Below are positions 14,308 to 33,595 of a stretch of 64,000 nt of DNA, piece after piece (within the stretch, counting starts at the first letter, position 1; each line of letters opens with the position of its first letter). The translations under genes and the position numbers were made by a program. The stretch comes from Longimicrobiales bacterium. Its GTDB lineage: Bacteria > Gemmatimonadota > Gemmatimonadetes > Longimicrobiales > Gaopeijiaceae. Location: positions 401,365-465,364 of the forward strand of contig JAWLHJ010000004.1 in assembly GCA_041690395.1 (NCBI GenBank), written 5' to 3'. The notes beneath the pieces are model-generated. The model was given only the letters and a program-made list of their open reading frames with translations. It did no database searches and was not told where the DNA came from.

Positions 14308-15237
14308 ATGCGACCCATCGCCATCGAACGGAGCTTCCTCCGTTATCCGCTCAACCACCTCCTCGGCGCCCCAGCGAACGTTCGCCTTCTCCGAGTGCTC
14401 GCCGATGAGGTGGTGGGTCCGATCTCTGCCGCAGAAGCCGCGGATCGTGCGGACCTGACGGAAGCCGGTGCGCGGCGCGCCCTCGGGCGACTGGCCGAGA
14501 CAGGCTTCGTCGTGCGGGTCGGAGGCGGCCGCTCGCAACAGTTCGCGCTGAGGGAAGACGACCAGCTGACCCAAGGTCTGGCTACGCTGTTCCGTACCGA
14601 GCGAAGCCGCTTTGAGGCGTTGATCGCGTCGATCCGTGAGCGCCTCGACGGACTGAGCGAAATCCGACTCGCGTGGCTCGACCAGCTACCGGAAGACGTC
14701 GGAGAGCCTCTCGAGATCGGCGTCATCGCCGATCCGGAGTCTCTGGCCTGGCTGGAGACCGAGCTTCGTCGCCGGATCACCGAGGTTGAGCAGCTGTTCG
14801 ACGTGACCATCGAGCTCAGGGGGTTCACACGGGCTGACGCCCCCTCCGTCTCCTGGGAGGAGGCTACCCTGCTCGCCGGCGTCCCCCCGTTTGAAGGGAC
14901 TCACCAACAGGGGCCTTTGGCCGTTCATGCAGATCGAGAGCAACGTGCGCTGAGACTCAGCCAAGCGATCGTGGAGCTGCTTGAAGAAGACCCTTCGATC
15001 GTGCGAAGGGCGGAGCGGCACCTGGAGCGTCTCTTGAAGGATGACCCGGGGCCGGCGTCTGAGGACCTGCGAGAGTGGCAAGCCATCCTCGCCACGTATT
15101 CCCCTGAACGCTTGGCGCGCTTTCTGGTCTCGGAACGCCCTCGCGCCCAGCGCCTCCGACAGAGCTCCCCGTTCTTCGCAGTCCTCACCGCGGATGAGAG
15201 GGACCGCGTAACCGCGGTGATGGAACGGGCGCGATGA
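14308..15237 (+). CDS. wHTH / nucleotidyltransferase-like / helical C-terminal domain protein, putative antitoxin-regulator
   Basis: N-terminal wHTH; C-terminal 'LREWQAIL...RLRQSSPFFAVLT' segment of the kind found upstream of DUF6036 genes. Confidence 0.6.
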   Translation: MRPIAIERSFLRYPLNHLLGAPANVRLLRVLADEVVGPISAAEAADRADLTEAGARRALGRLAETGFVVRVGGGRSQQFALREDDQLTQGLATLFRTERSRFEALIASIRERLDGLSEIRLAWLDQLPEDVGEPLEIGVIADPESLAWLETELRRRITEVEQLFDVTIELRGFTRADAPSVSWEEATLLAGVPPFEGTHQQGPLAVHADREQRALRLSQAIVELLEEDPSIVRRAERHLERLLKDDPGPASEDLREWQAILATYSPERLARFLVSERPRAQRLRQSSPFFAVLTADERDRVTAVMERAR

Positions 15238-15776
15238 CACGCGAAGAACTCGAACACGCCATCCGCGCAGCCTGCGACGTTGCCGATGACACCGAACTCT
15301 TCGTCTTTGGATCCCAAGCCATCCTGGGAGAGCACCCCAATGCTCCCCCGCGCCTGAGAGCGTCCGTAGAGGTCGACGTGCAGCCCGTGAACAAGCCAGA
15401 AGCGATCGACGCTATCGACGGAGCACTCGGAGAGCTCTCGATCTTTCACTCGACGTACGGCTTCTACGTACATGGAGTATCGCTCGAGACTGCAAGGCTT
15501 CCGGTCGGATGGAAGGAACGCACGGTTCCCGTCTCCCACGTCGTGGGAACCCGTGGAAACACAGGATATTGCCTCGAATCCCACGACCTCGCAGCCAGCA
15601 AGCTTGCGGCCTTTCGCGATAAGGACCGGGACTTCGTAAGGATCCTCCTAGTGGAGGAGCTGGTTGACGCGGGCACCTTGAAGACGCGGATCGATGACCT
15701 CGGACTCCCGCAGGACGAAAGCTCGCGGCTGGGCGCCTGGGTGGACCGGACGGTCCGTGACCTTCATGGGCGCTGA
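15234..15776 (+). CDS. DUF6036-family nucleotidyltransferase
   Basis: 'MTREELEHAIRAA', 'VFGSQAILG', 'EVDV', 'HDLAASKLAAFRDKD'. Confidence 0.75.
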   Translation: MTREELEHAIRAACDVADDTELFVFGSQAILGEHPNAPPRLRASVEVDVQPVNKPEAIDAIDGALGELSIFHSTYGFYVHGVSLETARLPVGWKERTVPVSHVVGTRGNTGYCLESHDLAASKLAAFRDKDRDFVRILLVEELVDAGTLKTRIDDLGLPQDESSRLGAWVDRTVRDLHGR

Positions 15777-15812
15777 GGGACTCGAACCCCCGACCCCCTG
15801 CTTGTAAGGCAG
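15767..15812 (-). repeat. att site: duplicated 3' 46 bp of tRNA-Val
   Basis: TGGGCGCTGAGGGACTCGAACCCCCGACCCCCTGCTTGTAAGGCAG is identical to 33521-33566. Confidence 0.97.
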
Positions 15813-15930
15813 AGCCAGGCACACTCAGTCGAGATCACCCGAAGTCACGAAAAGCCTTATAACGACTTGCTTGTTGGCGACTCTGCCGCCAACCTTCGTC
15901 GCTTCCAATCACCGGAAATCACTCCGGCCC

Positions 15931-15950
15931 GTGCACGCACCGTGCACGGC
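15931..15950 (+). repeat. Putative integrase arm-type binding sites (paired GTGCAC)
   Basis: GTGCACGCACCGTGCACGGC matches 33434-33453 at 19/20 positions. Confidence 0.7.
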
Positions 15951-15976
15951 AATTCGGCAGACGAAGAGGTGCCCCC

Positions 15977-17302
15977 GTGAGTAACCTGACGAAGAGATCC
16001 GTGGACGGCGCCTCGCCACCCGAGCGCAAGCCGGGCGAGTCGGACCAGAGCTACCGGAAACGATGGGCGTGGTACAGCGACCTGGAGGTCCCGGGGTTCG
16101 GCGTGAAGGTCTACGGCAGCGGCAGGAAGGTCTACGCGCTCCGCTACCGAACTCAGAGCGGCCGGCAGCGGATGTATACCCTGGGCAAGCACGGTGCGCT
16201 GACCATCAAGGAAGCGCGAGACCACGCGCGTGCTAAGAAGGTCGAGATCCTGGATGGGGAGGATCCTCAGGCCAAGAAGCAACGCGAAGCCGTCGAGATC
16301 CGCACGGTCGAGAAGCTCGTCACCCGGTGGATCGAGGACTACGCCAAGAGCCATCGAAAGCGGTGGAAGGAGGACAAGGGCCGCCTGGATCGTCACGTGA
16401 AGCCGAAGCTGGGCCAACTCTCCCTCGAGGATCTCACCCGGGATGTGCTCGCCGCATGGCACCGATCCCTCGGCAAAGGCACGCAGATCCAGGCGAACCG
16501 ATGTCTGGAGACGCTCCGCGCGGCATGGAGATGGGCCGACGGAGAGGGTCTACTGCCGGAAGGTATCCTGGACCCCACCAGGAGCATTAAGAAGTTCCGT
16601 GAGCGCAGTCGGGACCGCTGGCTCAGAAAGCCAGAGGTGAAGCGGCTCATGGAAGCCGTGGCCAAGCAGAGTGACGACTACGTCCGTGCTGCAATTCCAC
16701 TGTTCCTGCTGACCGGCCTTCGGAAGCGTGAGCTTCTGAACGCCCGATGGGAGAACATCGATCTTGAGCGCGGAGAGATTCGCTTGCCTGAGACGAAATC
16801 GGGGGTCGCTCAGGTCCGACTGCTCCGGCCGCGGGCGGTTCAAATCCTGACTCATCTTCCCCGGGCGAGTGAGAGCCCCTTCGTGTTCCCGTCGCCGCAG
16901 GACCCCATGAAGCCACGAGACGACATCAAGAAGCCCTGGGCCGAGATCCGAGAAAAGGCTGGTCTCCCCAGCGTCACGTTGCACGATCTGCGTCGAACGG
17001 CCGGCTCCCTCATGGCACAGGCCGGAATCCCCCTACAGGTGATAGGAAAGGTGCTCGGGCACTCACACCCCGGCGTCACCAAGCTCTACGCGCGTCTCGC
17101 AAGCGAGAACGAGCGCCAGGCGTTGGACACCCTCTCCGACGAGCTTGAGGGAGTCCTCGGGCTCACAGAGGATTCTGAGGCCGAGGAGTCCCGTTCGCTC
17201 GAGGAGAGCCTCCGCGCCGTGCTAGAATCGTCGGCGGGGGATCCCAAGGCGCTCCAGGCGGGTCTTCGGGACCTTGGATTCCGCTCACCGGTCGAGGCCT
17301 GA
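15977..17302 (+). CDS. Tyrosine recombinase/integrase with N-terminal arm-binding domain
   Basis: 'VPGFGVKV..SGRK' arm domain; 'TGLRKREL', 'ETKSG', 'HDLRRT', 'LGHS', 'TKLYA' (R-K-H-R-H-Y catalytic set). Confidence 0.96.
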   Translation: MSNLTKRSVDGASPPERKPGESDQSYRKRWAWYSDLEVPGFGVKVYGSGRKVYALRYRTQSGRQRMYTLGKHGALTIKEARDHARAKKVEILDGEDPQAKKQREAVEIRTVEKLVTRWIEDYAKSHRKRWKEDKGRLDRHVKPKLGQLSLEDLTRDVLAAWHRSLGKGTQIQANRCLETLRAAWRWADGEGLLPEGILDPTRSIKKFRERSRDRWLRKPEVKRLMEAVAKQSDDYVRAAIPLFLLTGLRKRELLNARWENIDLERGEIRLPETKSGVAQVRLLRPRAVQILTHLPRASESPFVFPSPQDPMKPRDDIKKPWAEIREKAGLPSVTLHDLRRTAGSLMAQAGIPLQVIGKVLGHSHPGVTKLYARLASENERQALDTLSDELEGVLGLTEDSEAEESRSLEESLRAVLESSAGDPKALQAGLRDLGFRSPVEA

Positions 17303-17306
17303 CCGC

Positions 17307-18245
17307 ATGAATCAGCCAAACACTCGCCTTCATCTCCCGAATGCGGATCTGAACCGAGAGGTGCTCGAGGGACGGCAGGCGTTCCTCGCCGCCTTAACGC
17401 GCCTCAGGCCGGATGCCCTTGCAGCGTTGCTGGACGTGTCCGCGCTCCAGCTCAACGACCTCGGCAGGGACGCTCTCCACCTCCTCTCCTGGACGGCGAC
17501 CTCTGACGAGGGGCCTCGCCTCCGGCCCGGGTGGGGCGTCGCAAGCTGGGACCAGCGAAGCATCGATCGCTTGGACACCGAGTACCCGAGCTGGCGCGAC
17601 GTGCGGAGCCGAATAGAGCAGCACATCGGAGGCTGGGGGCAGCGTTTCAACCTCTCTGACCCTTGGCTTGGCGCGGCGGGTTGGGGCACACTGCAATCTT
17701 TCCGTCTCTCGGGTAGCCGTGCCTTCCAGCTTCCGCAGCGTTACCAGGTTGACCGCCTGGAGTATCTCCCCGTGGACCCCGATCAAGCCGGGTACGGGGT
17801 ACTAGGCCACCTGACGACACTGGGCGGTCGGAGCACGGATTCCGGCAGCGATCCGGAGAGACTGTCCATCATGGTATCGCTCGACGAATGGCATCCCCTC
17901 GGGGGAGAAAGCCGGTTTGATGCCCGCGCCCGAATGGTGGGCGCGTTGGAGCAGCTCGTGGACGAGTACCTCGAACGCATCGAGGCTCACGCTCGGGATC
18001 ATGGCGCGAAGCCGATATCCGAGAAGCGTGCACGCCGAACGGGTACTCCGGCCGCTCACTACGAATGGCTGGTCCGCTGGCAGGTGCCGCCCTGCGAGAG
18101 CCTTCGGAGCATCGCCGACCAGCCGGACGGGCAGGGAATAGCCACCCGCTCCCTCGGCGAAAAGACCATTCAGGTGGCGTTGAAGGACACAGCAGCGCGG
18201 ATCGGCCTGACGCGCCGCTCCGGGAGGGCCCGAACCCCCAAATAA
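17307..18245 (+). CDS. Hypothetical protein with possible C-terminal HTH
   Basis: 313-codon ORF right after the integrase; 'ESLRSIAD...EKTIQVAL' segment. Confidence 0.6.
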   Translation: MNQPNTRLHLPNADLNREVLEGRQAFLAALTRLRPDALAALLDVSALQLNDLGRDALHLLSWTATSDEGPRLRPGWGVASWDQRSIDRLDTEYPSWRDVRSRIEQHIGGWGQRFNLSDPWLGAAGWGTLQSFRLSGSRAFQLPQRYQVDRLEYLPVDPDQAGYGVLGHLTTLGGRSTDSGSDPERLSIMVSLDEWHPLGGESRFDARARMVGALEQLVDEYLERIEAHARDHGAKPISEKRARRTGTPAAHYEWLVRWQVPPCESLRSIADQPDGQGIATRSLGEKTIQVALKDTAARIGLTRRSGRARTPK

Positions 18246-18336
18246 GCTCCCGGGACCCTATTTGGGTGTAGCGCATTCGTGATCTCCGCTTCCGTCACTG
18301 AGCAATTCATCGCTCACGTGTGACGGAGAAACAGAC

Positions 18337-18561
18337 ATGGCATCGCAGGATCTCGAAGACCGAACTACCACCCTGAGTCCCGCCGAGGCCGCCCGGCGCC
18401 TCGGCCTCAAAGAGTCCACCCTCAGAAACATGCGCTGGAGGGGTGATGGCCCCCCGTTCGTCCGGGTTGGTCGCCTGTGCCGTTATCGGCTTGTGGACCT
18501 CGATCGCTGGCTAGCGAGCAGGGTGAGGACTTCCACCTCGGATGTCGGCCGCAATGGGTGA
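18337..18561 (+). CDS. Excisionase/AlpA-like HTH protein
   Basis: 'LSPAEAARRLGLKESTLRNMRWRGDGPPFVRVGR..RY...DLDRW'; GGAG RBS. Confidence 0.9.
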   Translation: MASQDLEDRTTTLSPAEAARRLGLKESTLRNMRWRGDGPPFVRVGRLCRYRLVDLDRWLASRVRTSTSDVGRNG

Positions 18562-20443
18562 CCAGGCCGCGCTTGCCACTTCGGGGGCAGGGAGAGGTAG
18601 CGGTGATCGGAAGCTCCGGGATTCACTGGGGCTGGAGCTCGGATTCACCCAAGACTCCCGAACCGGGATCTGGTGGGGGCCCTGTCACGAATGCGGCGAT
18701 CGGCGGGCCTCGGTTAGCACCACCTCGTGGTCGTGTCCACAGTGCGGACCGCGAACGCTCGAGGCAACGGCGGTATTGGCATCATTGGACGAACTGGAGA
18801 GCTGGCCGGAGCGCCCGGACGTCCCCGGTTTCGCCATTCCCGAGCCGTTACCCCTCGATGCACTCCCAACCGTAGCTCGCTCGGCAGTCGCGTCTGTCGC
18901 GGAATCCCTCCAGGTACCGAGCGACCTTCCTGCACTTTTTGCGATCTTATGCGGGGCCGCCGCGATCGGGGACCGTGTAAGCGTGCGTATCCGGTCCACA
19001 CAAGTGGAGCCCTTAGCCCTGTATGGAGTTGGAATCGCCGCACCGGGCGAGCGAAAGAGTCCGGTGTTCGCACGCATGTGCCGGCAACTGTACGACTGGC
19101 AGAAGAGAGCCACGCTGAGGGAGCAGCCACTCCAGCGCGCTGCGCGCGACCGAGTCGATGCCCTCAACACGAGACTGGCTTCACTCAAGAAAGCAGCGGC
19201 AAAGGATCCCGCTGCACTCGACGAGATGGAAGACGCGAGGCGTGAGCTCGACGCCGCGGAGCGGGCTGTTCCTGCCTCCTCTTGGTTGATCGTGGACGAC
19301 GTGACGCCCGAAAAGCTGGCGATGGAGATCGCCGATCAGGGCGGGCGCGCAGCAATCTTCGCTGCTGAGGGGGACGTCCTCCGGATCTTCGCGGGTCGGT
19401 ATGGCAAGGGCGATCCACGTGCGGACCTGTTGAAGAAAGCCATCAATGGTGAGCCCACGCGCGTGTCGCGCGTCGGCAGGGAGACGATCTGGCTTCCGAG
19501 GCCGATCCTAACGGTCGGGCTGATGATCCAACCCTCGGTCCTGGGGTCTCTGGACAATCGAGACAGTCTCGAAGGGGAGGGAGTATTTGCACGGTTCCTC
19601 TTCGTGCAGCCTGAGAGCAACTTGGGATGGCGCCTGACGGGCCGAGAGATCCCGCCTCCGGACCTCGAGGCGGAGAGGAGGTTTGGCCACGCCCTGGAAC
19701 GCCTTCTCGACGTGGCTTCCAGCGAGGTTCTCGAGTCCGGGGAGCGCGTACCCCATATCATCGAACTGTCCGACGATGCGGAGAAGATTCTGTTCGCATG
19801 GGAAAGGGAGATCGAGGGCATGCTCGCCCCCGGCGGCCGGCTTCGATCCATCTCCGGATGGAGTTCAAAGCTGGTCGGGTACACGTGCCGGATCGCGGCC
19901 ATCTTGCAGCTACTGGACCGGGCATCCCGTGGCGAAGCGCTCCCAGGTGGTCATGTCGGGCCGAGTTACGCCGAAGGGGCGGTTCGCATCGCTCGTGCCC
20001 TCACATCTCACGCCATCAGGGTTCTTGGAGAGCTCGCGACATCTCCAGACTCCGCCGATCTGGCATACGTCTGGAGAAAATGCCAAGAATTGAGCCTCCG
20101 CGCTGCACGGAAGCCGCACGACACCCAGAACGACGAAGGTCTAACCCTCACCACACTTCGTCGAGCGATGGGGCGCAAGAGTATCAAGCGCGCAGAAGAC
20201 CTAGCACGCCTTGTTCGCGAACTCGAGCAGCGGAGTTGCTTGAGACTGCTTCCGCAAGGGCCGACTGGCGGCCGGCCAAAGGCAGACCGAATCGTGCTTC
20301 ATCCGATGTTTCGGTGCGGAACCGCAGAAAATGCAGAAAGTCCCTCCGCAGACACTCGCAACACCCTTTCTGCAGTTTCTGCAGTTGTTTCGGAAGGTTG
20401 GCAGAACAAATCTGACCCACTCGATGTCCTGGATGGAGCATAG
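18542..20443 (+). CDS. DUF3987/YfjI-family replication protein with N-terminal Zn finger
   Basis: CHEC..CPQC; Walker A-like 'APGERKS', 'DVTPEKL', 'GLMIQP', 'GVFARFLF'. Confidence 0.82.
   Translation: MSAAMGDQAALATSGAGRGSGDRKLRDSLGLELGFTQDSRTGIWWGPCHECGDRRASVSTTSWSCPQCGPRTLEATAVLASLDELESWPERPDVPGFAIPEPLPLDALPTVARSAVASVAESLQVPSDLPALFAILCGAAAIGDRVSVRIRSTQVEPLALYGVGIAAPGERKSPVFARMCRQLYDWQKRATLREQPLQRAARDRVDALNTRLASLKKAAAKDPAALDEMEDARRELDAAERAVPASSWLIVDDVTPEKLAMEIADQGGRAAIFAAEGDVLRIFAGRYGKGDPRADLLKKAINGEPTRVSRVGRETIWLPRPILTVGLMIQPSVLGSLDNRDSLEGEGVFARFLFVQPESNLGWRLTGREIPPPDLEAERRFGHALERLLDVASSEVLESGERVPHIIELSDDAEKILFAWEREIEGMLAPGGRLRSISGWSSKLVGYTCRIAAILQLLDRASRGEALPGGHVGPSYAEGAVRIARALTSHAIRVLGELATSPDSADLAYVWRKCQELSLRAARKPHDTQNDEGLTLTTLRRAMGRKSIKRAEDLARLVRELEQRSCLRLLPQGPTGGRPKADRIVLHPMFRCGTAENAESPSADTRNTLSAVSAVVSEGWQNKSDPLDVLDGA
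20320..20386. repeat. Inverted iteron pair, candidate replication origin
   Basis: AACCGCAGAAAATGCAGAAAG (20320-40) and CTTTCTGCAGTTTCTGCAGTT (20366-86) are 19/21 complementary; each arm holds two GCAGAAA units. Confidence 0.6.
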
Positions 20444-20444
20444 G

Positions 20445-20726
20445 ATGGGTGCTCGGGACCGACGCCACCGTGGCTCTTTGCTGTGTATTCGCCTCGCTGA
20501 GGATATTTCGCGCGTTGTTCCCGACGGGATCGGCACCTGGGATCATGCTTGGGAGATTGTCGCCGCGGCCGACACGGCCTTCATGCTGGCTCTCCTCGAG
20601 TGGGAGGCGACAGGTCAGGCAGCACTGAAACGACCGCTCCGGGACGCCTATTTCGCAGTGATCGACGCCTGGCGAGAAGCGGCGGGGGCGTACCTAAGCC
20701 GGACTTCCATGTGGGCCAATGACTGA
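20445..20726 (+). CDS. Small hypothetical protein
   Basis: ATG two bases after the DUF3987 stop; stop overlaps the next gene. Confidence 0.55.
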   Translation: MGARDRRHRGSLLCIRLAEDISRVVPDGIGTWDHAWEIVAAADTAFMLALLEWEATGQAALKRPLRDAYFAVIDAWREAAGAYLSRTSMWAND

Positions 20727-21252
20727 CGCCAACAATCGCGACGCCCGAGTAGCCACCAGAGGCTTCGATACATCTAAAGACCCTTATCTGGGCGACGATC
20801 CTATGGATAGCCAACTTCGCCTCGGAACGTTCGCCGACCGAGTGACCTGGTTCCTCGAGTCTCAGGGACGCTGGAGCGGACCACAGCTCGCCGAGCAGTG
20901 TCCGCGCTTGGACATGGCCATCGTGCGTACACTGGGCCCGGGCGTATCGACGCTGTTCTGGTCCGACGGGAGCAAGTCGCGTGTCGTACCCATGCATACC
21001 GGCCTGGACGTCGTGCACAACCCGGCCAACGCCGACTTCTGGATCCCCCGCGCGGTGAGTTTCTCCTTCACCTCCTGCAACTTCGGCGGAGAACGCACGT
21101 GGTTCCTATGTCCGAGGTGTGACCGTCGGAGAGCAGTGCTGTACGCGTATCCAGGATTCCTGTGCCGAACCTGCAACGGACTCACGTACTCATCTACCCA
21201 CCGGCGGCCGCCTTGGAGGCCGGAGCCGGTGTGTCTCGTGCAAACGATTTAG
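20719..21252 (+). CDS. Zn-finger protein typical of integrative elements
   Basis: 'CNFGGERTWFLCPRCDRR..VLY..FLCRTCNGLTYSS'. Confidence 0.7.
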   Translation: MTDANNRDARVATRGFDTSKDPYLGDDPMDSQLRLGTFADRVTWFLESQGRWSGPQLAEQCPRLDMAIVRTLGPGVSTLFWSDGSKSRVVPMHTGLDVVHNPANADFWIPRAVSFSFTSCNFGGERTWFLCPRCDRRRAVLYAYPGFLCRTCNGLTYSSTHRRPPWRPEPVCLVQTI

Positions 21253-21366
21253 GGAATAGTCCGGGACATCCAGTGGAGCCGGTCGCCTCCTGAGAACGCG
21301 CCAGCGAGTGCCTCGGCCCACTACCTGATGCCCCTGTCGCATACACTTTGCTGGACCGCTGGTGGC

Positions 21367-22173
21367 CTACTCTTCGCCATCCGACCGATCGCACCGGGGC
21401 AGCTTATCCTGCAGGACGATATTGACCGAAGCCACGGCGATTACCGCCGCAGCGATGGCTATTCCCGCGACTTCCTCAGGATCGCCATCGATGAAGAGGG
21501 TGAACCCGGTGTCATCGAACTCGAGAGACTTCGTCTCAATCCTGGGAGCGGGATGCGCCTGAAGAGACAGGAGGTTGTAAAGAGACTTGTGGATCAGCAG
21601 GCTCTGCTCGTCCCCACCGGTAGCCTCGGCAAACTCCTCCGGTAATCTCGTCCGGGACTTGCCGCTCCAGTGAAACTGTCGCCCCTTCTTCTTCGTGCGA
21701 TCGTGCAAGACGGCCTCGAGTGCCTCACTCATTACCTGCGTCTTCTCAGGCACGAATCGGCTCCAGACCTCTGAGTCTTCATCCGCTAAGACAGCGGCGG
21801 ATTTCTGCTCAACGTCCTCTTGATCGACCGCCGCTTGGTTGGCCAACTGCGCCCCGTACTCCCAGTCCAACAGTTCTCCAGCCCGCGCCCGTGCCCCAAA
21901 ATGGTCGTAGTCTGCGTTGCGGGTGCCCAAGAACATCACCTCCTGAGCCGCCTCAAATGCCGACCGTGCCGCTGCGTGCGCGGTACGGGGGACCTGAGAG
22001 TCCCAGAGCAGCCTTACGGCCTTGGCGTGCTGGAACACGTCGCGAGCGAGACCAAGGAGGGCGAGGTCGGGAATCAAGTGGGCTCCGCGCACGCCAGTCG
22101 TGAGGATCGTGTCATGAAGCGACCCTAAGGCCTCGTCCAGGTCCTCGACTGAGCCCTTCACACACACCTCCAT
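21367..22173 (-). CDS. DUF5677-like (HEPN-related) protein
   Basis: 'ARSAFEA' and 'LYNLLSLQAHP' motifs; GAGG RBS. Confidence 0.65.
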   Translation of the reverse strand: MEVCVKGSVEDLDEALGSLHDTILTTGVRGAHLIPDLALLGLARDVFQHAKAVRLLWDSQVPRTAHAAARSAFEAAQEVMFLGTRNADYDHFGARARAGELLDWEYGAQLANQAAVDQEDVEQKSAAVLADEDSEVWSRFVPEKTQVMSEALEAVLHDRTKKKGRQFHWSGKSRTRLPEEFAEATGGDEQSLLIHKSLYNLLSLQAHPAPRIETKSLEFDDTGFTLFIDGDPEEVAGIAIAAAVIAVASVNIVLQDKLPRCDRSDGEE

Positions 22174-22192
22174 GCCTCACAGGAAATCGATG

Positions 22193-22282
22193 GCGACTTC
22201 GAGTTGCTGCTGCAGCGTGCCCGGTGACAGCCAAAGCATAGCGATCCGGTAGAGCGCGACGGCACCAGTCCCTTGTTTGGAC
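22193..22282 (-). repeat. Decayed attC-like element C
   Basis: Starts 3 bp after the HD-nuclease stop; shares CTGCTGCA, CCGGTG, AGC(G/A)TAGCG and CGCGAC.GCA.CA blocks with 24155-24248 and 26139-26235. Confidence 0.55.
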
Positions 22283-22285
22283 GGG

Positions 22286-24118
22286 TCACGTTCCCTGCCG
22301 CGGCAGCGTAACGGTCGCATAGGCGCCCTTCGTACCCAGGTGCGAGACCTCGAAGTCTTGGTCAGGGATAGTCAGTCGTCGGAACTGACTCCTGATCTGG
22401 GCCTCGGCTTCAGTGTTTCCGCTCTGGGTGTTCTTTGCCTCCACGATCATCAGCACCGGTTGCGATACATCACGAGAGAGTAGGATCGCCAGCCCATCAA
22501 ACTCGGCGACGATCTGCCCGCTCTGTATGACCTCGGTAGATCCCGCAAAGGCGACGATCGCCCCGCGGTAGTCGATCGCCCGCAACGCGGCCTCCAATTG
22601 CACGACCTCATTCAACTGGTCGGCTCCCAAAAGCCCGGACCCCTTCGCCCAGTCCCGATACGTCCCAATCACCTCGGCAGCGCGGGTAGACCCATAGACT
22701 CTGACTACCGGTGACGTCTCAACCGCAGGCAGAGTACGGAGTCGGAAGCGCCTTTGCTCACCAAGGACCTGTGGGAGCAGGAACCTCAACAACGCAAGGC
22801 CGTTTCGCGTCGCACTCGCTGCGGACAGCTGAACGTCGAGCTCTGCAATTCGCGTCTCGAAGTCGAGCAGCTGCTTCCCCACCCTCAGTGCGGCCTTCTG
22901 GCGAACCGAGGTTGACGACGTGCGGGCTAATGCAGCTGTGACCTTCAGGTGTCGATGTCGAGGATCAAAGTCGGCTGCGAATCGACACGACCGGAGGCCG
23001 ACCGCTTGTCGGGCACCGCGCTCCCAGCCCAGGGGGTCCGGCAGAAGCGACGTAGCGAGCGCCGGGTCGAGATCATATGCCAGTTGGACAATCGGGCCGG
23101 TCGGTGTCCCATGCTCGTCCGGAGGACTCGGTGCGGTAAAATGGGTCGAAGCGTCGCGATCAGGGCCCATCAAGTCCCAGAGAGCCCCGATTGTAGCCGG
23201 CTCGGGATCAAGCGCCTCAAGTCGATCGAGGATCTCGTCACCAACCCGAGCATGATTGATGAGTTGGGGCGCCGCCATGTAAACCGTATCTCGCATGACA
23301 CCCTCTAGACGCTCAAGAGCCTCTTGGAACGCAGAGCCCTCAACGAATACATCGGTCAGATAGTGCTCCAAGGAGAAAAAGATCGATGCGAGATCCAGCG
23401 AAAAGGGTACAGGAGCGTAGTGCGAGTCCAGAGCCAAGTAGGTGAGTCGCCTCAGGCTCCGATACAGATTCCATAGCGCGACCAAGCTCTGATCCGTTTC
23501 GCCAGACTGCAGAGTGGTGAACGACCGCAGTATCGCCTGGCAGAAGTCCGCTATCGACGCGCCACCCTGCCTACGCCTGTACCGATCCAGAAGAAACGAG
23601 GCGATCAGGTAGTTGAATTGATAGAGGTTGTTGGTTCTCAACGCGCGATCGAAACGCTCACGATCCGCTTCGGGCAGCCCGGACCGGAATGCGGCCGCCG
23701 AGCGCCGATGGTCGCGGAGATACTTCATGAGAGCGCGCTCGCCGGAGAACGTGCTCGGCAGGTGTCCGATGTTCCCCAGCATCGCAAAGACCATAAGGAT
23801 CTCGCCGTTCGTCGGGTCCTGACCAAGGCCGTCGATTGTACCGAAGGTGTTCCGCCGGCGTCCCAGACTCAGTCCTGCAGGAAGCTGGCCCCGTAGATGG
23901 CACAACTCGGTGATGATGGCCAGCTGCGCCATCAGGTACTCATACCGAGTGTGGTGCGCTCCGGGGAGCACCTGCCGAATGGGTCCGAGTTGATCGATCC
24001 CCTTTAGAGCGCGGACGTGCTCGTATTGCTCCAAGAAGTCGAACACAGTCTTCGCGTACGGGAACAGTCGCACCCGGACGAGGCCGAAGCCCGGCAGGTT
24101 ATAGCGCCAGTATTCCAC
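22286..24118 (-). CDS. Degenerate HD (dNTP triphosphohydrolase-like) domain fused to C-terminal PD-(D/E)xK nuclease
   Basis: 'LKGIDQLG..PGAHHTRYEY', 'MLGNIGHLP', 'RRLTYLALDS', 'MRDTVY'; C-terminal 'EFDGL...IVEAKN'; GTG 24118 is the preferred start (ORF open to 24289). Confidence 0.7.
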   Translation of the reverse strand: MEYWRYNLPGFGLVRVRLFPYAKTVFDFLEQYEHVRALKGIDQLGPIRQVLPGAHHTRYEYLMAQLAIITELCHLRGQLPAGLSLGRRRNTFGTIDGLGQDPTNGEILMVFAMLGNIGHLPSTFSGERALMKYLRDHRRSAAAFRSGLPEADRERFDRALRTNNLYQFNYLIASFLLDRYRRRQGGASIADFCQAILRSFTTLQSGETDQSLVALWNLYRSLRRLTYLALDSHYAPVPFSLDLASIFFSLEHYLTDVFVEGSAFQEALERLEGVMRDTVYMAAPQLINHARVGDEILDRLEALDPEPATIGALWDLMGPDRDASTHFTAPSPPDEHGTPTGPIVQLAYDLDPALATSLLPDPLGWERGARQAVGLRSCRFAADFDPRHRHLKVTAALARTSSTSVRQKAALRVGKQLLDFETRIAELDVQLSAASATRNGLALLRFLLPQVLGEQRRFRLRTLPAVETSPVVRVYGSTRAAEVIGTYRDWAKGSGLLGADQLNEVVQLEAALRAIDYRGAIVAFAGSTEVIQSGQIVAEFDGLAILLSRDVSQPVLMIVEAKNTQSGNTEAEAQIRSQFRRLTIPDQDFEVSHLGTKGAYATVTLPRQGT

Positions 24119-24154
24119 CGTTGCCAACCACCACGACTTGAAGGAGCGTGAGCC

Positions 24155-24248
24155 GTCTAACGTCAGGGGATTCTGCTGCGCCGCCTGTCCGGACACCAGC
24201 GTAGCGTAGCTATCCGTTCTTCCGTGATAGCAGCAATCCATTAGAACG
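24155..24248 (-). repeat. Decayed attC-like element B
   Basis: - strand ends in GTTAGAC (GTTRRRY core); imperfect IR GGATT[CT]GCTGC / GCAGCAATCC; homologous to 26139-26235. Confidence 0.7.
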
Positions 24249-24360
24249 CAACGATGGCACATCGGACCGAAGGGGCTGGCGGGTGCCACCGAACACTAGC
24301 CGACCATGGCAGGGACCGGACCGCTCGGGCCAAAAGTCACAAGAGATCTCGCTGCAGAAC

Positions 24361-25173
24361 TCAGTAGTCCATCTTCAGGTACCGCGTTCCTGTGAACCGA
24401 TCGATGTACGGACCGCTCCTCACGGAGTTCATCAGGTCCCAGTAGCACACCTTCGCATACTCGTTCTCGAGTTCGGGTGGGTACGTGAAGCTGTATCGAG
24501 GATCGTTCACTGACGGGGGCGGCACGTAGGCGCGGTAGAACTCGGGGGCCAGATACTCATGAATGGCCCACCGCACCTCCGTCAACATTTCGGCAAGCGA
24601 GGTGCTGTGGTAGGAGAGAATATCGACGTGAAACCGTTCGTAGAAGTCATCGAGCGCGCGTAGTGAGTCGATGAGCGAGGCGGAGACACCACTTGCCTCA
24701 AGTAGCTTTCGCAACCTCTTGGCGTTCCGTGTTAACCGAGCTGGATTGTGCTTGGAGAGATTGCCACAAATCGCCACGAAGTCGCGGCGACGCAGCGATA
24801 GCGGAACCTCCTCATCGAGGCTTGGAAACCAAGCCTTGACCGTGATCTCGGTGTCGAGCCAAGCAGTGAGATTGGCGACACTGGCGGCGAGCACCTCGCG
24901 AGCTTCGTCTCCGGGTAGCTGCGGATCCGAGGACACGGTTCCCAGTGCATCGAGCAGAGATCCGCGAATACCGACGAGGTCCCGGTCCACCTGCTCAAGC
25001 ATGTCCGCCAACAGCACGCAAAAAAGTGAGCGACGAGTCGGTGATTTGAACGTCGCCTGCGTGATCTCGGGCTCGCCCCCGAAATTGAGCATCTCGTGAT
25101 TCACCATCGAGTTGATCACCTCAATGGTCAATCGCAGCACCACAGCCTCGCGTTCGATCTTTGTGGTGCTCAA
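24361..25173 (-). CDS. Hypothetical protein (possible HEPN-like)
   Basis: 270-aa helical ORF; 'ICGNLSKH' motif; GAGG upstream of TTG start. Confidence 0.65.
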   Translation of the reverse strand: MSTTKIEREAVVLRLTIEVINSMVNHEMLNFGGEPEITQATFKSPTRRSLFCVLLADMLEQVDRDLVGIRGSLLDALGTVSSDPQLPGDEAREVLAASVANLTAWLDTEITVKAWFPSLDEEVPLSLRRRDFVAICGNLSKHNPARLTRNAKRLRKLLEASGVSASLIDSLRALDDFYERFHVDILSYHSTSLAEMLTEVRWAIHEYLAPEFYRAYVPPPSVNDPRYSFTYPPELENEYAKVCYWDLMNSVRSGPYIDRFTGTRYLKMDY

Positions 25174-25256
25174 TCTGCGGCCTCTGATTCGTATGGAGTT
25201 CTTGCCGTAGCGTGTATCAGGTAACCACGAGCCCGACGCTTTTAACAGGCTCGCTC

Positions 25257-26000
25257 CTATTCGGCCAGTGACTCCATCTCGTCGGCCAGCCTGTTCAAGA
25301 ACGCATCGACTTGGTCGAAGTAGTCGCCAAGGTCCAGAGGAGACACGAACAGGTCCTCGCCGGACAGCGGCGCGTGCACCGCGGTCTTGATCTTCCCGAG
25401 CGGGGACGACGGGTCATTCTTCAGCGCGTCCGGTAAGAAGAGATCGGGCCGCACTTTCCACAGCGACTCTGTCGCGGCACCGTCCGCATGCTTGGTGGCG
25501 TTCGCTACGTGCCGAAGTTCTTCGATTTTGGACCACTCAGGGAAGTCCTTCAAGTCCAGCCCCTGTGCTCCAAACGCCTTCACAATGTTGCTCCCCCTCA
25601 GCAGCGCATGGTCATTCTCGTGCTCCTTTGGAAGTAGTTCCTTCCGCAACAAGAATAGGAGCTTCTGTTCAAGCAGATGATGCAGGGCAACGGCGAACAG
25701 ATTGAGCACGGCTTGCCGGGCGCTCCGCCGCAGGTCGTAGTAGAGGATGCTCTCGTCTCGTGCTGCCTCGTAGTAATCGGCTGGATCGTCATCCGGGTGG
25801 AAGTGCCTCCCGAGTCGTTCCAGTGCCTCCTCGCCCGCGCGCTCTGCCTCATCGTCGATGTTGTCGAACGATGGAAGGGCACGGTCGAGCACAGTCTCAC
25901 GAAGAACGACCACCTCGGGTATGACGATCCTACGGAGATAGTTGGCCCAAAAGGGACCGTTTGCCTTCAGCCCAAGTCCACGGACCTTCGGAAGCGCCAC
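25257..26000 (-). CDS. HEPN-like protein
   Basis: 'LHHLLEQKL' and 'WSKIEELRHVANATKHADG' motifs. Confidence 0.65.
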   Translation of the reverse strand: MALPKVRGLGLKANGPFWANYLRRIVIPEVVVLRETVLDRALPSFDNIDDEAERAGEEALERLGRHFHPDDDPADYYEAARDESILYYDLRRSARQAVLNLFAVALHHLLEQKLLFLLRKELLPKEHENDHALLRGSNIVKAFGAQGLDLKDFPEWSKIEELRHVANATKHADGAATESLWKVRPDLFLPDALKNDPSSPLGKIKTAVHAPLSGEDLFVSPLDLGDYFDQVDAFLNRLADEMESLAE

Positions 26001-26138
26001 TTTCTCACCTTACGGTTGAGTTGGGGGTCGAGTCGCTGACCCAAGTAGATCAACGTTTCCGTAGTACAGGACACGATGCCGCATTCCGACGAATCCACGA
26101 CTTACGAGCGGATACCTGTAGAATCTGCCCGCGTTGCG

Positions 26139-26235
26139 CTCTAACGTCTCGGAATTCTGCTGCACGGCCCTCCGGTGCACCAGCGTAGCGTTGCCTACCC
26201 AATCTTCCGCGACTGCAGCAATTCCCTGGAAACGA
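26139..26235 (-). repeat. Decayed attC-like element A
   Basis: Begins about 14 bp after the PIN gene stop; - strand ends in GTTAGAG; IR GGAATT[CT]GCTGCA / TGCAGCAATTCC. Confidence 0.7.
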
Positions 26236-26248
26236 TCTGCCCGCACGG

Positions 26249-27259
26249 TCAAATAGGTCCCAGCATGCTGCGCGTCGTTGAGACGAGATCTATGAATCTG
26301 AGTTCGCCATCGGAAAGCTCTAGGGACCGGGTCCGCCACAGGCGGCGAATGATCCTCTCGGTCAGCCTGCCTGGTGCCATCCGAAACTGGCAATATCCAT
26401 TGATCTGCCCCGCGCCCCGAGAGTTGTTGAACGGGTAAATCCGCGCGCCTGGAGGGACCGGACCGACAGCTACGTTGCGACCTCGGGTCTCACCGTTGAT
26501 GAAGATGAAGATCCCGTCGGCATCGACCGCCACGGCGACAAAGTTTGAGGATTGCCACTCAACCGCCTGAGGGAGGGTGAGCATACCAACGGGTACCGAT
26601 TCCTGGAACCACCGGAAGACGAAGGCTGCCTGGGCGGGCTCGTAGAACAGCTCAGCCTTGCCGGTCAGGTCCATCACGTAGGGGATCTCCCCTGAGTCGC
26701 GGATCGCTTCACTCGACCAGTTGGGCCAAAACTGACCGAGAAACGTCCACGCGAAGGGGTTTCCGCCGTCCAGGAGCCGCGGATCGTTGGGGTTCCAGAG
26801 GAAGCTGGAAGGACTCTTCACCTTGATGCCGGGTACCTCCTTACGGAAGAACTCCCAGTCGTGCGTCAGGAGGAAGTTGACCTTCCCCGCTAGTGAGTCA
26901 GCCAGCACCTGTTGGTCCTCGCCGGAGAGTCTCGCGGCCCAGGGCGGGAGACATGACCGGTCGCCATCGGCGACACGCTCGACCGTCGTGTGCTGGGCGA
27001 GCTGTAATAGACCATCCGCGAAGTCGCCCACAAGGTTGGGGGCGTTGGTACGCAGGACCCGTAGCGCCATATCCTCGACGTGCCGGCCGAGCACGACCGT
27101 CCCCTGATCCAGGGAGGCGAGGCACTGGTTGCTATACGAGCCGAGATCCAACAAGCCGGCCAGGAGAACGCTAACGTCAGGAGCGATTCTGGACTGCCGG
27201 ACCGTCGGGTGCACGGCTTCTACGATCTCCCTTGGTACCGAATCGAACCGATCAGCCAC
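26249..27259 (-). CDS. PIN-domain RNase fused to a LamG/ConA-like beta-sandwich
   Basis: 'PDVSVLLAGLL', 'EDQQVLADSLAGKVNFLLTHD' (PIN acidic residues); C-terminal 'FVAVAVD..GIFIFING'. Confidence 0.6.
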   Translation of the reverse strand: MADRFDSVPREIVEAVHPTVRQSRIAPDVSVLLAGLLDLGSYSNQCLASLDQGTVVLGRHVEDMALRVLRTNAPNLVGDFADGLLQLAQHTTVERVADGDRSCLPPWAARLSGEDQQVLADSLAGKVNFLLTHDWEFFRKEVPGIKVKSPSSFLWNPNDPRLLDGGNPFAWTFLGQFWPNWSSEAIRDSGEIPYVMDLTGKAELFYEPAQAAFVFRWFQESVPVGMLTLPQAVEWQSSNFVAVAVDADGIFIFINGETRGRNVAVGPVPPGARIYPFNNSRGAGQINGYCQFRMAPGRLTERIIRRLWRTRSLELSDGELRFIDLVSTTRSMLGPI

Positions 27260-27647
27260 AATACTCCGGGGTTTCGATCTAACAAGGGATCCTGCAGGTC
27301 TGCGTATCGCCGTTCTGCTGAGCGCCTTTTGGCGGGGCTCCCGGAACGTGGCACCAAGAGTTAATGACTGGAGGTGGACGTTCTCCCAAGAGTAGTTCCG
27401 TGGGTCTAGTCTCGACAGGATCTGCGACTCCTCCGCTTCCCAAGGATCACTTCCCTACCCAGCATCGGGCCCGTGGCAGCCCCACCACCTGCTAACCCAG
27501 CAGGGGTTCCGCCACGGCTAAGCCCTTACCTCTTATTGTCATAGAGCACCCCAGTGGCATGCGCGTGCACAAACCGTGCACCCAGGATGGCGCTGGGCGG
27601 CTGGAACCGCGCTCGCGGTTCGCTTTCCCGAACGCGGGAGATAGCTC

Positions 27648-29309
27648 TCAACGAGTGGCCACATGGTGCACGATCGAGTCGGCCAATCGCTCCGAAATGT
27701 CCTGTAGATCCCGAAAGCGTTCCTCAAGCTCGTCGCAGAGCGCCATGAGCTCGGTTACCCTTCCAACGATGCGGCGCTGTTCATCGAGGGGCGGCAAGGG
27801 AATCGGGCAGGCTCCGAAATAATCGCGCGGCACCCGTTGCTGTCCCGCAGTGCCCGTCATTCGTGGCACACCCGCCTCGATAAAGGTCGCAGACTTCAGG
27901 AACACGAGGGCGTAACTCGGCTCAAGAACACCCTGGAACGGTCGAAGAACATGTAGCTCGGTGGTGCCCGCGCCTATTCCGTTCGGCAACCCTGAAACGA
28001 CAACGGATTTTCGGTTCTGGAAGCACGGGGTGATCTTGGCCAACGCGATATCCCCGTCGGCCAGATGCGTGTAGCCCTTCTTGATCTCCTTCCAAAGGCG
28101 TAGCTCCGCCGTGTGCCCGGGTACGAAACCGTCATCGATTGCGGCCATGGGGACGAAGCCGGCCTCCGTTTCATCCGCCACCTCGTTTCTTGGGCCGACG
28201 ATCCCGAGATCCTGCAGTTCCACCCAGCGCCATGTCTCGGGCACCTCGAAGGTCGGGGGTGGATCAGGGATCCTGCATCGGCGTGGCTTCCGCCCCGAGT
28301 ACGTCTTGAGCGCCTGCGCTGCTCGCACCAAGAGCTCGGCGGCAGACTCCTCGCCCGCCCGCTGCTCCACCAGCCTGCCTCTCACTGCCAGATCGAGGAT
28401 GGTCCGCCTGAGGTCGTCTACGCTCTCGGGCGTAGTGAACAGCGACTCCCAGTTGTCACGCATCCGGACCCACTCGCCGTCAGCTAGGAGGGCCTCGAGC
28501 GAGGATACACGGGCCTGGTCGCGAACAGTAGCCGTCACCGCCTCGACTCGGGTGAGCTCTTCTAGAATGGCTTGGAGCCCACCAACCGTCCGGACGATTT
28601 CGTGCTGTACCTCGAGCGGTGGTAGAGGCAGCAAGATCAGAACCATCCGGGTAAGGCCGAGATCCCGGTTTCCGGTACCGTGTGTGTACTCCTGCGCTTG
28701 TTCATAGCAGAAGGGGCTGTTCAGTGCTAAAGCCAGATACTCGGGGGCTACCAATTCCAGATCAGTCCGAAGCACAGCAACGTGGACCCAGACAGAGAAA
28801 TCCATGGATAGGTCGTTGACCACCGCGACCCCCGTCGTCCCCCCTTTGGTGTACAAGATGTCGCCTGGGCGCGGGCGGATGCGCTTACAAAACGACTCGT
28901 GGTCCTCGCGAGAAACATACTTGGTGTTCGTCAGGTCGATGCGCCCCGAGCTGAGCTCGCCAGCCGAAAGCATAGGGACGGCCTCTGGATGCGGGCCGGG
29001 AACCCAGTTCGGCGAGAAGTGGGGCCCGTCCGCGACCTCGTAGCACGCCTCACCAAGGCGAATCCATTTCCAGCCGGATGGGAGGTCGAACGGAAGATCA
29101 CCGGGAAGATCGGGCAGAGCTTTCTTACGTCGGAGTTCCTTGGCTTTGATCTTTCCCTGTCTCCGCCGACGCATTTCCTCGACGATCTCCTCAGCGGACG
29201 ATGTATAGGGCACGGAGCCACCGATGCCCCCTGATATCGCGAGCATACTCGCCAAGTCCCGGAGAGAATCGATCGCCAAGAAGTCGAGAGCGGGTCCGAT
29301 GACCATCAC
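27648..29309 (-). CDS. hsdS: Type I restriction-modification specificity subunit
   Basis: Two TRDs, 'PFDLPSGWKW', 'PLPPLEVQHEIV', 'LRRTILDLAVRGRLVEQ', 'PLPPLDEQRRIV'. Confidence 0.93.
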   Translation of the reverse strand: MMVIGPALDFLAIDSLRDLASMLAISGGIGGSVPYTSSAEEIVEEMRRRRQGKIKAKELRRKKALPDLPGDLPFDLPSGWKWIRLGEACYEVADGPHFSPNWVPGPHPEAVPMLSAGELSSGRIDLTNTKYVSREDHESFCKRIRPRPGDILYTKGGTTGVAVVNDLSMDFSVWVHVAVLRTDLELVAPEYLALALNSPFCYEQAQEYTHGTGNRDLGLTRMVLILLPLPPLEVQHEIVRTVGGLQAILEELTRVEAVTATVRDQARVSSLEALLADGEWVRMRDNWESLFTTPESVDDLRRTILDLAVRGRLVEQRAGEESAAELLVRAAQALKTYSGRKPRRCRIPDPPPTFEVPETWRWVELQDLGIVGPRNEVADETEAGFVPMAAIDDGFVPGHTAELRLWKEIKKGYTHLADGDIALAKITPCFQNRKSVVVSGLPNGIGAGTTELHVLRPFQGVLEPSYALVFLKSATFIEAGVPRMTGTAGQQRVPRDYFGACPIPLPPLDEQRRIVGRVTELMALCDELEERFRDLQDISERLADSIVHHVATR

Positions 29310-30769
29310 GATTCCATGGCTTCTTCCAACACGGTCCGGACCGTGGCGCGAAGTCGGTCTATTTCCAAGCGGACGGCCGCAAGATCTCTGAGCAACTCAT
29401 CGGGATCATCGTGGGATACCGAGCCAGCATCCGGATGGCTGATGTCGAGGTTATAGCCACGCTCCACCACCTCTCCAATCGGTACCAACCACGCCCGCTC
29501 TCCGCTCTGCCGCGCCTCCCACCATGCTTTCTCTGAATCAAATTCCTCGATCCGTATAGGCTTAGTCTTTGAATAGGACTTGTAGCCCTCAGGGTAGGGA
29601 TGCTCGTAGTACCAGATCTCCTTCGTCGGCTCCCCCTTGGTGAAGAAAAGGATATTCGTGCGGGTGGGCGTATACGGCTGAAAGACCCCCTTAGGCAACC
29701 GGACAATCGTGTGGAGGTTGCAGTCCCTAAGCAGCTTCTCCTTGATCCTCGTCTTGATGCCCTCGCCGAAGAGCGTTCCGTCGGGCAGGACAATCGCGGC
29801 CCGTCCCCCGTCCTTCAGCAGTTCCATCACCAGCACCAAGAAGAGATCGGCGGTCTCGCGAGTCCGAAACTCTGATGGGAAGTTGTTCTCGATCCCGTCC
29901 TCCTCCATGCCACCGAATGGTGGATTCGTTACAATGACATCGACCTGGTCCTTAGGTCCATAGTCCCGGAGCGGCTTTGTCAGTGTGTTTCCGTGGCGAA
30001 TGTGAGAGGGTATGGCGATCCCGTGCACCATCATGTTTGTAACGCAAAGCAGGTGCGGGAGCCCCTTTTTCTCAATTCCCCGCACGCTTCGCTCTAGAAG
30101 CGCCTGCTCGTCGGTCGTCTCCACCTGCCTCTTCATGTGTTCGTAAGCACAGGTTAGGAAGCCGCCGGTTCCGCAGGCGGGATCAAGAACAACCTCCCCT
30201 AGCTGCGGGTTCACCAAGTCCACCGCGAATTGGGTCACCGCGCGCGGCGTGTAGAACTCCCCGGCGTTCCCAGCCCCTTGGAGATCCGTGAGAATCTGCT
30301 CGTAGATCTCCCCAAACAGGTGGCGGGTCTTCGCCTGATTGAAGTCGATATCCGACTGCAGCCGATCGATTACCTGGCGCATCAGGGTGCCCGACTTCAT
30401 GTAATTGTGGGCATCCTCGAAGACGCTCCGAATTATCGCGGCCCGGTCGTGCTCTTCACCCTCAAACCCCGCCAAGTCGAGTCCTTTGAGCGTCGGGAAG
30501 AGCTCTCCATCCACGAAGGCCAGAAGCGCGTCACCGGTGAGCGAGTCCTTTCCCAGGCGTTCGGAGTCCGCCCAGGAGTGCCAGCGGAGCCCCTCCGGGA
30601 CTGGAGACCGATACCCATCCCGGGTCAACTCCAACTCCTCCTCGAGATCGCTGAAGATCTTCAGAAACAACATCCATCCGAGTTGCTCGATGCGCTGGGC
30701 ATCACCCGCCACACCCGCGTCCTTCCGCATGATCTTCTGCATGGACTTGATCGTTCTTGAAAGCGACAT
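29306..30769 (-). CDS. hsdM: Type I R-M N6-adenine methyltransferase
   Basis: 'GEFYTPR', 'DPACGTGGFL', 'NPPFGG'. Confidence 0.97.
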   Translation of the reverse strand: MSLSRTIKSMQKIMRKDAGVAGDAQRIEQLGWMLFLKIFSDLEEELELTRDGYRSPVPEGLRWHSWADSERLGKDSLTGDALLAFVDGELFPTLKGLDLAGFEGEEHDRAAIIRSVFEDAHNYMKSGTLMRQVIDRLQSDIDFNQAKTRHLFGEIYEQILTDLQGAGNAGEFYTPRAVTQFAVDLVNPQLGEVVLDPACGTGGFLTCAYEHMKRQVETTDEQALLERSVRGIEKKGLPHLLCVTNMMVHGIAIPSHIRHGNTLTKPLRDYGPKDQVDVIVTNPPFGGMEEDGIENNFPSEFRTRETADLFLVLVMELLKDGGRAAIVLPDGTLFGEGIKTRIKEKLLRDCNLHTIVRLPKGVFQPYTPTRTNILFFTKGEPTKEIWYYEHPYPEGYKSYSKTKPIRIEEFDSEKAWWEARQSGERAWLVPIGEVVERGYNLDISHPDAGSVSHDDPDELLRDLAAVRLEIDRLRATVRTVLEEAMES

Positions 30770-33112: not shown

Positions 33113-33433
33113 TGGCCACCGACCTCGGGAGCGATCACCGATGCGGTCCGAGCCAGCGGGGAGAGATCATGCGGGCGCGGAGAGCAGACGAGCAAACAGG
33201 AGAAGTGCGCCGATGGCGGGGGCGAGAGGATCGCGGGCGCAGGTGGAACCTCCTTAGCGTGTGCCTCGGGACAGTGGGATTGGTGGATGCAGGGATAAGC
33301 GCGGGGGCATCGACCCGCAACCTACTCGGATCCTACGACAGTGCATCCCGAGCCGAGACTGCTTGAATGGGGGCGGTGGTCTCGACGGCGACGCCGCGTC
33401 CAACCCCCACCGGCAGGAGATTAGCAGCCGCTT

Positions 33434-33453
33434 GTGCACGCCCCGTGCACGGC
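33434..33453 (+). repeat. Putative integrase arm-type binding sites (paired GTGCAC)
   Basis: GTGCACGCCCCGTGCACGGC, about 70 bp inside the tRNA-side att core. Confidence 0.7.
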
Positions 33454-33520
33454 TTTTCCGACGGCGCACCTGGGCCGGACCAACCGCCTTCTAAGATGCT
33501 ACCCTGAAAGTACTTAAGAG

Positions 33521-33595
33521 TGGGCGCTGAGGGACTCGAACCCCCGACCCCCTGCTTGTAAGGCAGGTGCTCTAACCAAGCTGAGCTAAGCGCCC
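33521..33595 (-). tRNA. tRNA-Val(TAC)
   Basis: GGGCGCTTAGCTCAGCTTGGTTAGAGCACCTGCC-TTACAA-GCAGGGGGTCGGGGGTTCGAGTCCCTCAGCGCCCA folds as a cloverleaf; CCA is not encoded. Confidence 0.97.

Follow-up and report, generated by a model that had tools for sequence, protein, structure and literature searches.

A mobile fusion of a SAMHD1-like HD domain without metal ligands and a predicted PD-(D/E)xK nuclease is a candidate nucleotide-sensing anti-phage protein

We analysed a 64,000-nucleotide stretch (the window) of the genome of a Longimicrobiales bacterium (GCA_041690395.1, contig JAWLHJ010000004.1) and, within it, a gene for a protein of 610 amino acids (aa) that joins a SAMHD1/EF1143-type HD domain, devoid of its metal ligands, to a predicted nuclease domain. 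On balance, we lean towards a single-gene, mobile anti-phage protein, in which a free deoxynucleotide in the dead pocket would activate the nuclease, so that DNA is cut and the infection aborted. We give an even chance to the evolutionary counterpart of this reading, namely that a lineage of the SAMHD1 family became a metal-free deoxynucleotide receptor, with arginine replacing iron, hard-wired to a nuclease and reading the nucleotide pool, or modified nucleotides peculiar to phages, with no cyclase or second messenger.

Lost metal site, kept pocket and nuclease motif

The open reading frame (ORF) of the original prediction is real: GGTGG stands 9 nucleotides (nt) upstream of the GTG at 24118, and the homologs share the N-terminal start of the 610-aa call. 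A longer database call (P0002, 651 aa) starts within the upstream attC-like site. All the motifs that had been listed were found (LKGIDQLG, PGAHHTRYEY, LGNIGH, SLRRLTYLALD, MRDTVY, and EFDGL...IVEAK), and the AlphaFold model of the 610-aa protein was confident (pLDDT 95.8, pTM 0.94).

A word-based search retrieved 51 proteins, the query among them. When representatives at 50% identity were searched exhaustively, 287 proteins had an E of 1e-10 or below and 510 one of 1e-3 or below, with the best 150 of the 510 matches listed. The family has about 290 divergent clusters and a typical member of about 600 aa. From the search lists and fetched loci, we aligned 180 full-length sequences (555-665 aa; fragments and length outliers were left out) and kept 170 at less than 90% identity, to which the counts out of 170 below refer.

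For the HD part, the family profile was aligned by HHalign with 16 intact HD proteins, at a probability of 97.95 (E 3e-13, 235 columns). Its register pairs RFEH with RYEY, LHDIGH with LGNIGH, DVDRIDYLLRD with SLRRLTYLALD, and VY with VY, in agreement with the motif register first proposed (D.DR.DYL.RD for the third pair). Structural alignments to SAMHD1 and its relatives display the HD deoxynucleoside triphosphate (dNTP) triphosphohydrolase (dNTPase) fold with both lobes. Thus, the SAMHD1-like fold was correctly recognized, but its extent of about 300 aa was too short, since the structural alignments reach residues 415-445. Conservation is low at aa 291-480 (mean 0.22, no column at 90%).

SAMHD1 binds its iron through His167, His206, Asp207, and Asp311, according to the available part of PMC7311409. 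At the first of these positions the homologs present Tyr in 166 cases (His in two), at the second never His, at the third Asn in 159 and never Asp, and at the fourth Arg in 167 and never Asp. The Tyr-Asn-Arg signature is common to 154/170, and none keeps all four ligands: the loss is family-wide. In a quick tree of 61 family and 16 intact-HD rows (a careful search is unfinished), a long branch with support of 100 parts the family from the intact HD proteins. We rejected a decaying allele, because the replacements are common to those 154 homologs and the two members with His at position 61 nest deep in the family tree. Read from its sequence, the protein is a SAMHD1/EF1143 homolog and not an active member. 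Two related members, P0045 and P0047, couple His at position 61 with Glu for His at 119, a natural pocket variant.

The nucleotide pocket has been kept. In SAMHD1, Gln149 and residue 319 read the 3'-OH, Leu150 and Tyr374 exclude ribose, and Arg164, His210, His215, Lys312, and Arg366 hold the phosphates (PMC7311409, available part). Gln149, Leu150, Arg164, His210, residue 319, and Tyr374 map to Q43, L44, R58, H119, D231, and Y280, and all six are kept together in 155/170; the first motif was mapped from a SAMHD1 segment, and for the later positions we counted along the known SAMHD1 motifs and the HHalign register. The His215 position is Phe in 147/170. The Lys312 position is Arg or Lys in 116/170 and that of Arg366 is acidic in most homologs, which leaves the gamma-phosphate site unconserved. 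Since these SAMHD1 residues are only partly kept, the ligand may just as well be a deoxynucleoside monophosphate (dNMP) or a 3' end of DNA as a dNTP. In nucleotide-bound structures of the dead SAMHD1 mutant H206R/D207N the HD metal site is empty (PMC7311409, same part), and the Asn and Arg of the family look like a natural version of this mutant. A homodimer prediction for aa 1-455 scored 0.02, which carries no weight either way.

It is highly improbable that the HD fold has remained enzymatically active, through a chemistry that is altered or needs no metal (Arg223 for the metal, His119 kept), for example on a modified nucleotide, and with the C-terminus as a second activity. The retention of H119, equivalent to His210, in 158/170 would suit it, as would the near invariance of T123 (169/170) and E60 (163/170), but hydrolysis by SAMHD1 requires the two-metal centre built from the four lost ligands (PMC7311409, same part), and the Phe at the His215 position also speaks against it.

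At the C-terminus, E504 is kept in 167, D541 in 170, E560 in 166, K562 in 168, and Q574 in 120 of the 170 homologs. The D..ExK nuclease motif is retained in 162 of them, and the alignment check proposed with the original prediction found H/HD/D lost and this motif retained across the family. Motif order and predicted elements (Table 1) fit an alpha-beta-beta-beta-alpha-beta core, the canonical layout of PD-(D/E)xK nucleases. The domain displayed weak matches to NERD, Mrr, Card1, Can1, and NucS. Can1 and Card1 were the matches listed for the C-terminal part in a structural search with the full model, and with the C-terminal domain alone, Foldseek and searches of PDB profiles retrieved chance matches only. 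Card1_endonuc loci, sought for a comparison profile, were found neither in 201 genomes nor in controls. From motif and modelled topology, we predict a PD-(D/E)xK nuclease. The pocket and the nuclease motif are conserved jointly across 20-30% identity while the remainder drifts.

Proposed gating of the nuclease by a deoxynucleotide

In the mechanism we favour, the invariant Arg (Asp311 position) and Asn (Asp207 position) would occupy the vacant metal site and bind the alpha-phosphate, an arrangement that we liken to engineered SAMHD1 H206R/D207N, where substrate is bound without HD metal. The ligand would carry a free 3'-OH on a 2'-deoxyribose, since the equivalents of Gln149, Leu150, residue 319, and Tyr374 are kept. 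As there is no partner enzyme, it would come directly from phage or host metabolism, as raised dNTPs, dNMPs of chromosome breakdown, or a modified phage nucleotide. Its level would change during infection, and binding would rearrange or assemble the protein to make the nuclease sites active, as in Can1, Card1/Can2, and NucC; the activated nuclease would cut DNA and abort the infection. The available parts of two sources report that phages alter dNTP pools (PMC12265719) and that a defence module senses modified deoxyadenosine monophosphate from chromosome breakdown (10.64898/2026.01.15.699771). A sensor plus an effector is the simplest reading of two co-conserved sites in a single mobile gene that is often among defence systems. 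The original interpretation stands for the HD fold, the lost metal ligands, the nuclease motif, the stand-alone nature, and the defence neighbours; the sensing and gating we infer.

The same pocket could instead cap DNA ends that bear a 3'-OH, or short oligonucleotides, from phage replication or chromosome breakdown, and so aim or activate a defence nuclease. We find this rather unlikely. The readers of the 3'-OH, the 2'-deoxy position, and the alpha-phosphate are kept while the gamma-phosphate ligands vary, which leaves room for a chain, and SAMHD1 structures with DNA, single-stranded RNA, and oligonucleotides are among the fold matches. However, beyond the pocket we saw neither a conserved basic surface nor a module for DNA binding, and aa 291-480 have no 90% column.

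Gating could also be inverse or depend on a protein: a bound dNTP would hold the nuclease off until phage depletion, or the HD domain would be a decoy that binds phage dNTPase inhibitors and fires the nuclease. This is unlikely too, despite anatomy and context that are the same as for activation by a deoxynucleotide. Nucleotide-inhibited GajA and the T7 gp1.2 inhibitor of Escherichia coli dGTPase are precedents. Moreover, Clover shows that HD folds take activating and inhibiting nucleotides (PMC12265719 and PMC13434031, in their available parts). A decoy should, however, mimic the surface of the active enzyme, and this family lies far from the intact HD proteins on its long branch and conserves the buried pocket, not the surface.

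Genomic setting of the family and of the window gene

We scanned the neighbourhoods of 35 of 42 loci (five fragmentary and two near-duplicate loci were dropped), using Pfam for the 238 ORFs that measure 100 aa or more and lie within 5.5 kb, and then PADLOC for 63 chosen ORFs. Known defence families were nearby in 15 of the 35 loci; 12 of the 15 carry a defence-linked Pfam family, and L027 was called Dodola by PADLOC alone. The restriction-modification (R-M) neighbours were type I in L013, L016, and L030, and type II in L019 (partial in L015). The others were CBASS (L013), Thoeris (L024), Dsr2 (L004), Dodola (L027, L031), Lamassu and Tmn (L031), Shedu (L034), AbiH (L036), GmrSD-like (L022), Dnd/Ssp-like (L017), a Schlafen-group helicase (L006), and HEC-01 with SoFic (L001). 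Three more loci (L011, L037, L038) presented candidate-level defence matches, and 17 had no defence neighbours, some with short flanks. Integrases, RepA_N, resolvase, insertion sequence, or prophage genes were common nearby.

Ten control loci with intact HD proteins contained housekeeping genes and no defence gene, in a rough control (Pfam only, 99/128 ORFs; two loci and small ORFs dropped). A PglZ match in two of them sits in a response regulator, which we take to be PorX. Compared to these controls, the family is enriched near defence genes (Pfam, PADLOC). No neighbour family occurs in more than 3 of 36 loci. There is thus no conserved partner gene, in agreement with a stand-alone protein, and a multi-gene or toxin-antitoxin system was rejected for the same reason.

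Several loci deserve a mention of their own. At L004:3216-5131, in Gracilibacillus halophilus, the homolog is broken up (ORFs of 416 and 237 aa) and the adjoining Dsr2 likewise, which suggests a decaying defence island. Members lie inside or beside polysaccharide biosynthesis clusters in L005, L021, L028, and L031, and directly after tail tape-measure and CHAP-domain genes in L041:2226-9800, apparently as prophage cargo.

The neighbours bear on a further alternative, that of a modification-dependent (type IV-like) restriction enzyme, a mobile gene with no role in defence, or a C-terminal domain that is not a nuclease; we hold it to be very unlikely. The gene is often next to R-M genes (window, L013, L016, L019, L030), its weak C-terminal relatives include Mrr and NERD, the evidence for a nuclease fold is weak, and 17/35 loci lack defence neighbours. 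Yet the pocket reads a sugar with a free 3'-OH, which an internal flipped base does not have, and many neighbours are not R-M systems (CBASS, Thoeris, Dsr2, Dodola, Lamassu, Shedu, AbiH). Against a non-nuclease, five acidic or lysine residues are co-conserved in 162/170 at canonical strand and helix positions.

In the window, what had been called an R-M island is a 17.8 kb integrative element delimited by 46-bp tRNA-Val repeats; it carries an integrase and a type I R-M operon (Table 1). This operon is a neighbour and not part of a system with the fusion protein.

Table 1. Location of the fusion gene, its domains, and the surrounding features in the window
Feature	Position	Strand	Remarks
Pseudo-HD/nuclease fusion gene	22286..24118	-	610 aa; GTG start 24118, TGA stop 22286-22288
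HD core, SAMHD1/EF1143 type (about aa 1-300)	23219..24118	-	HHalign, column counts, structure; metal positions replaced: Y61, G115, N116, R223; pocket kept: Q43, L44, R58, H119, Y227, D231, Y280
Middle region (about aa 301-455)	22754..23218	-	Poorly conserved; structurally the SAMHD1 C-terminal lobe
Predicted PD-(D/E)xK nuclease domain (aa 488-606)	22301..22657	-	Motif, predicted topology, weak fold matches; helix 1: E504; strand 2: E539/D541; end of strand 3: E560-x-K562; helix 2: Q574
Integrative element with the gene	15767..33566		17.8 kb; GC 0.61 vs. about 0.69 in the genome
46-bp tRNA-Val direct repeats	15767-15812 and 33521-33566		Element ends
Tyrosine integrase	15977-17302		Within element
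HTH_17	18337-18561		Within element
DUF3987	18542-20443		Within element
Type I R-M operon hsdR, hsdM, hsdS	27648..33112	-	Same element
Upstream attC-like site	24155..24247	-	Ends in GTTAGAC, 36 nt ahead of the start codon; damage on the R'' side
Downstream degenerate attC-like site	22192..22282	-	Directly after stop codon; aligns end to end with five other copies
Third attC-like copy	26139..26240	-	Two genes upstream; repeat and family alignment
Other cargo of the probable relic cassette array (four ORFs)	21367-22173, 24361-25173, 25257-26000, 26249-27259	-	DUF5677, a weak HEPN-like match (E 0.012), two without family; candidate defence genes
Helix-turn-helix protein and DUF6036 nucleotidyltransferase pair (Pfam)	14308-15776	+	Just outside the island; presumably resembles an AbiE-type toxin-antitoxin pair

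The gene had been placed between attC-like elements. Copies do lie on both sides, but all three island copies are decayed. They align end to end with three others in the genome. The two upstream copies keep L''/L' and GTTAGA and have a damaged R''; the downstream one keeps an R''-like start and has lost its GTT end, and its score is reached by 7-19 of 1000 random windows of the island, true copies being among those windows. The folded sites were not more stable than shuffles, and no integron integrase was found in the genome above the TIGR02249 cut-off. Judged by these repeats, the gene is probably a relic integron cassette. The copies outside the window are at G000 C1:984235-984332, C6:32310-32412, and C6:32758-32853, the two on C6 about 450 bp apart. 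By eye, attC-like ends were seen upstream of homologs L001 and L008 and at most other loci none; cassette carriage may recur in the family.

The distribution of the family is rare, patchy, and widespread. Named genome matches came from Bacteroidota, Bacillota, Calditrichota, and Armatimonadota (14 loci, by a pattern scan that misses many members), and atlas clusters added Pseudomonadota. The gene was not found in 40 relatives of the host, nor in 400 genomes of its phylum. Among 72,556 plasmids there was one partial match. No match was found in 50,697 phage records, and a phage gene was rejected on this count.

Two members depart from the usual architecture, which an assembly or gene-calling artefact may explain: P0098 (411 aa) joins the HD core straight to the nuclease-like domain and misses the middle lobe, and P0140 (784 aa) has an additional N-terminal domain of 165 aa. 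A modular sensor with other effectors was also considered and rejected. No relatives of 1142-3260 aa were found, which is weak evidence, and the nuclease-domain profile matched only family-length proteins and shorter pieces.

Relation to known nucleotide sensors and HD enzymes

The family is unnamed in the libraries searched. Neither the window protein nor the 42 family members matched a credible Pfam or NCBIfam family. The best match to the NCBIfam anti-phage dGTPase model had an E of 0.09, in 1 of the 42, and the HD-CE and inactive HD-CE conflict effectors gave no match in Pfam scans, the presence of those models in our Pfam copy being unconfirmed. PADLOC, run for the family on the window protein only, assigned it to no described system, its best E of 0.05 being at noise level; on these grounds we rejected an already described system. 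A PDB search with the single sequence retrieved one weak match (E 0.22), to an HD protein, fungal SAMHD1. Full-text literature searches, which covered few subscription papers and no supplements, retrieved no paper on the HD/nuclease architecture, and members may figure, with no description, in large tables of predicted defence genes. The available part of a 2026 survey of dGTPase fusions names NLR, TIR, SIR2, CARD, death, and SAM partners and not this one (PMC13519002).

Compared to SAMHD1, EF1143, BT4208, and Aquifex O67745, which have the metal ligands, the family has replaced all four, varies at the gamma-phosphate and allosteric residues, and carries a C-terminal nuclease-like fusion. Its gene is a rare and mobile one, in contrast to the intact-HD controls, which lie among housekeeping genes. 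In defensive dGTPases and in Clover (CloA/CloB) the HD site is a required active effector, whereas here it is dead, and no CloB-like nucleotidyltransferase partner is present in the family loci.

The nucleotide-gated PD-(D/E)xK nucleases Can1, Card1/Can2, and NucC share the plan of an N-terminal ligand-binding part and a C-terminal PD-(D/E)xK domain (PMC9704534, available part) and set the precedent for the proposed effector. Unlike in Card1/Can2 and Can1, the N-terminus is an HD fold, with no CARF Pfam match in 42 members, and there is no type III CRISPR context (no cas families among the 238 neighbour ORFs of 35 loci).

The Kongming system comes close in its logic and sets a direct precedent for the proposed sensor. 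As described in the available parts of 10.1101/2024.12.20.629578 and PMC13434031, KomB is a dead HAM1 pyrophosphatase that has lost its catalytic residue and kept its pocket; it binds dITP and activates the SIR2 NADase KomC. The likeness is that of a nucleotide-sanitising hydrolase near defence genes, with catalytic residue replaced and pocket kept, used as a sensor. By contrast, our family has HD and not HAM1, a nuclease-like domain and not SIR2, in one polypeptide, and no deaminase partner like KomA that makes a signal. By analogy, it would work like KomB, and it is not a Kongming member. The sensor-effector logic is known, and the combination of parts appears new.

A single protein of about 600 aa with a confident model, in which each half can be point-mutated, makes it testable whether bacteria read the dNTP/dNMP pool without a messenger-making enzyme. 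The known immune HD dNTPases (SAMHD1, dGTPase, CloA) destroy nucleotides; this family, if our proposal is true, reuses the fold as a pure sensor. It would then be the natural match of the SAMHD1 H206R/D207N trap and might serve as a nuclease tool switched by a ligand. Moreover, it would carry the principle of KomB over to a second class of enzymes and add a nuclease-gating sensor to CARF, SAVED, and HAM1.
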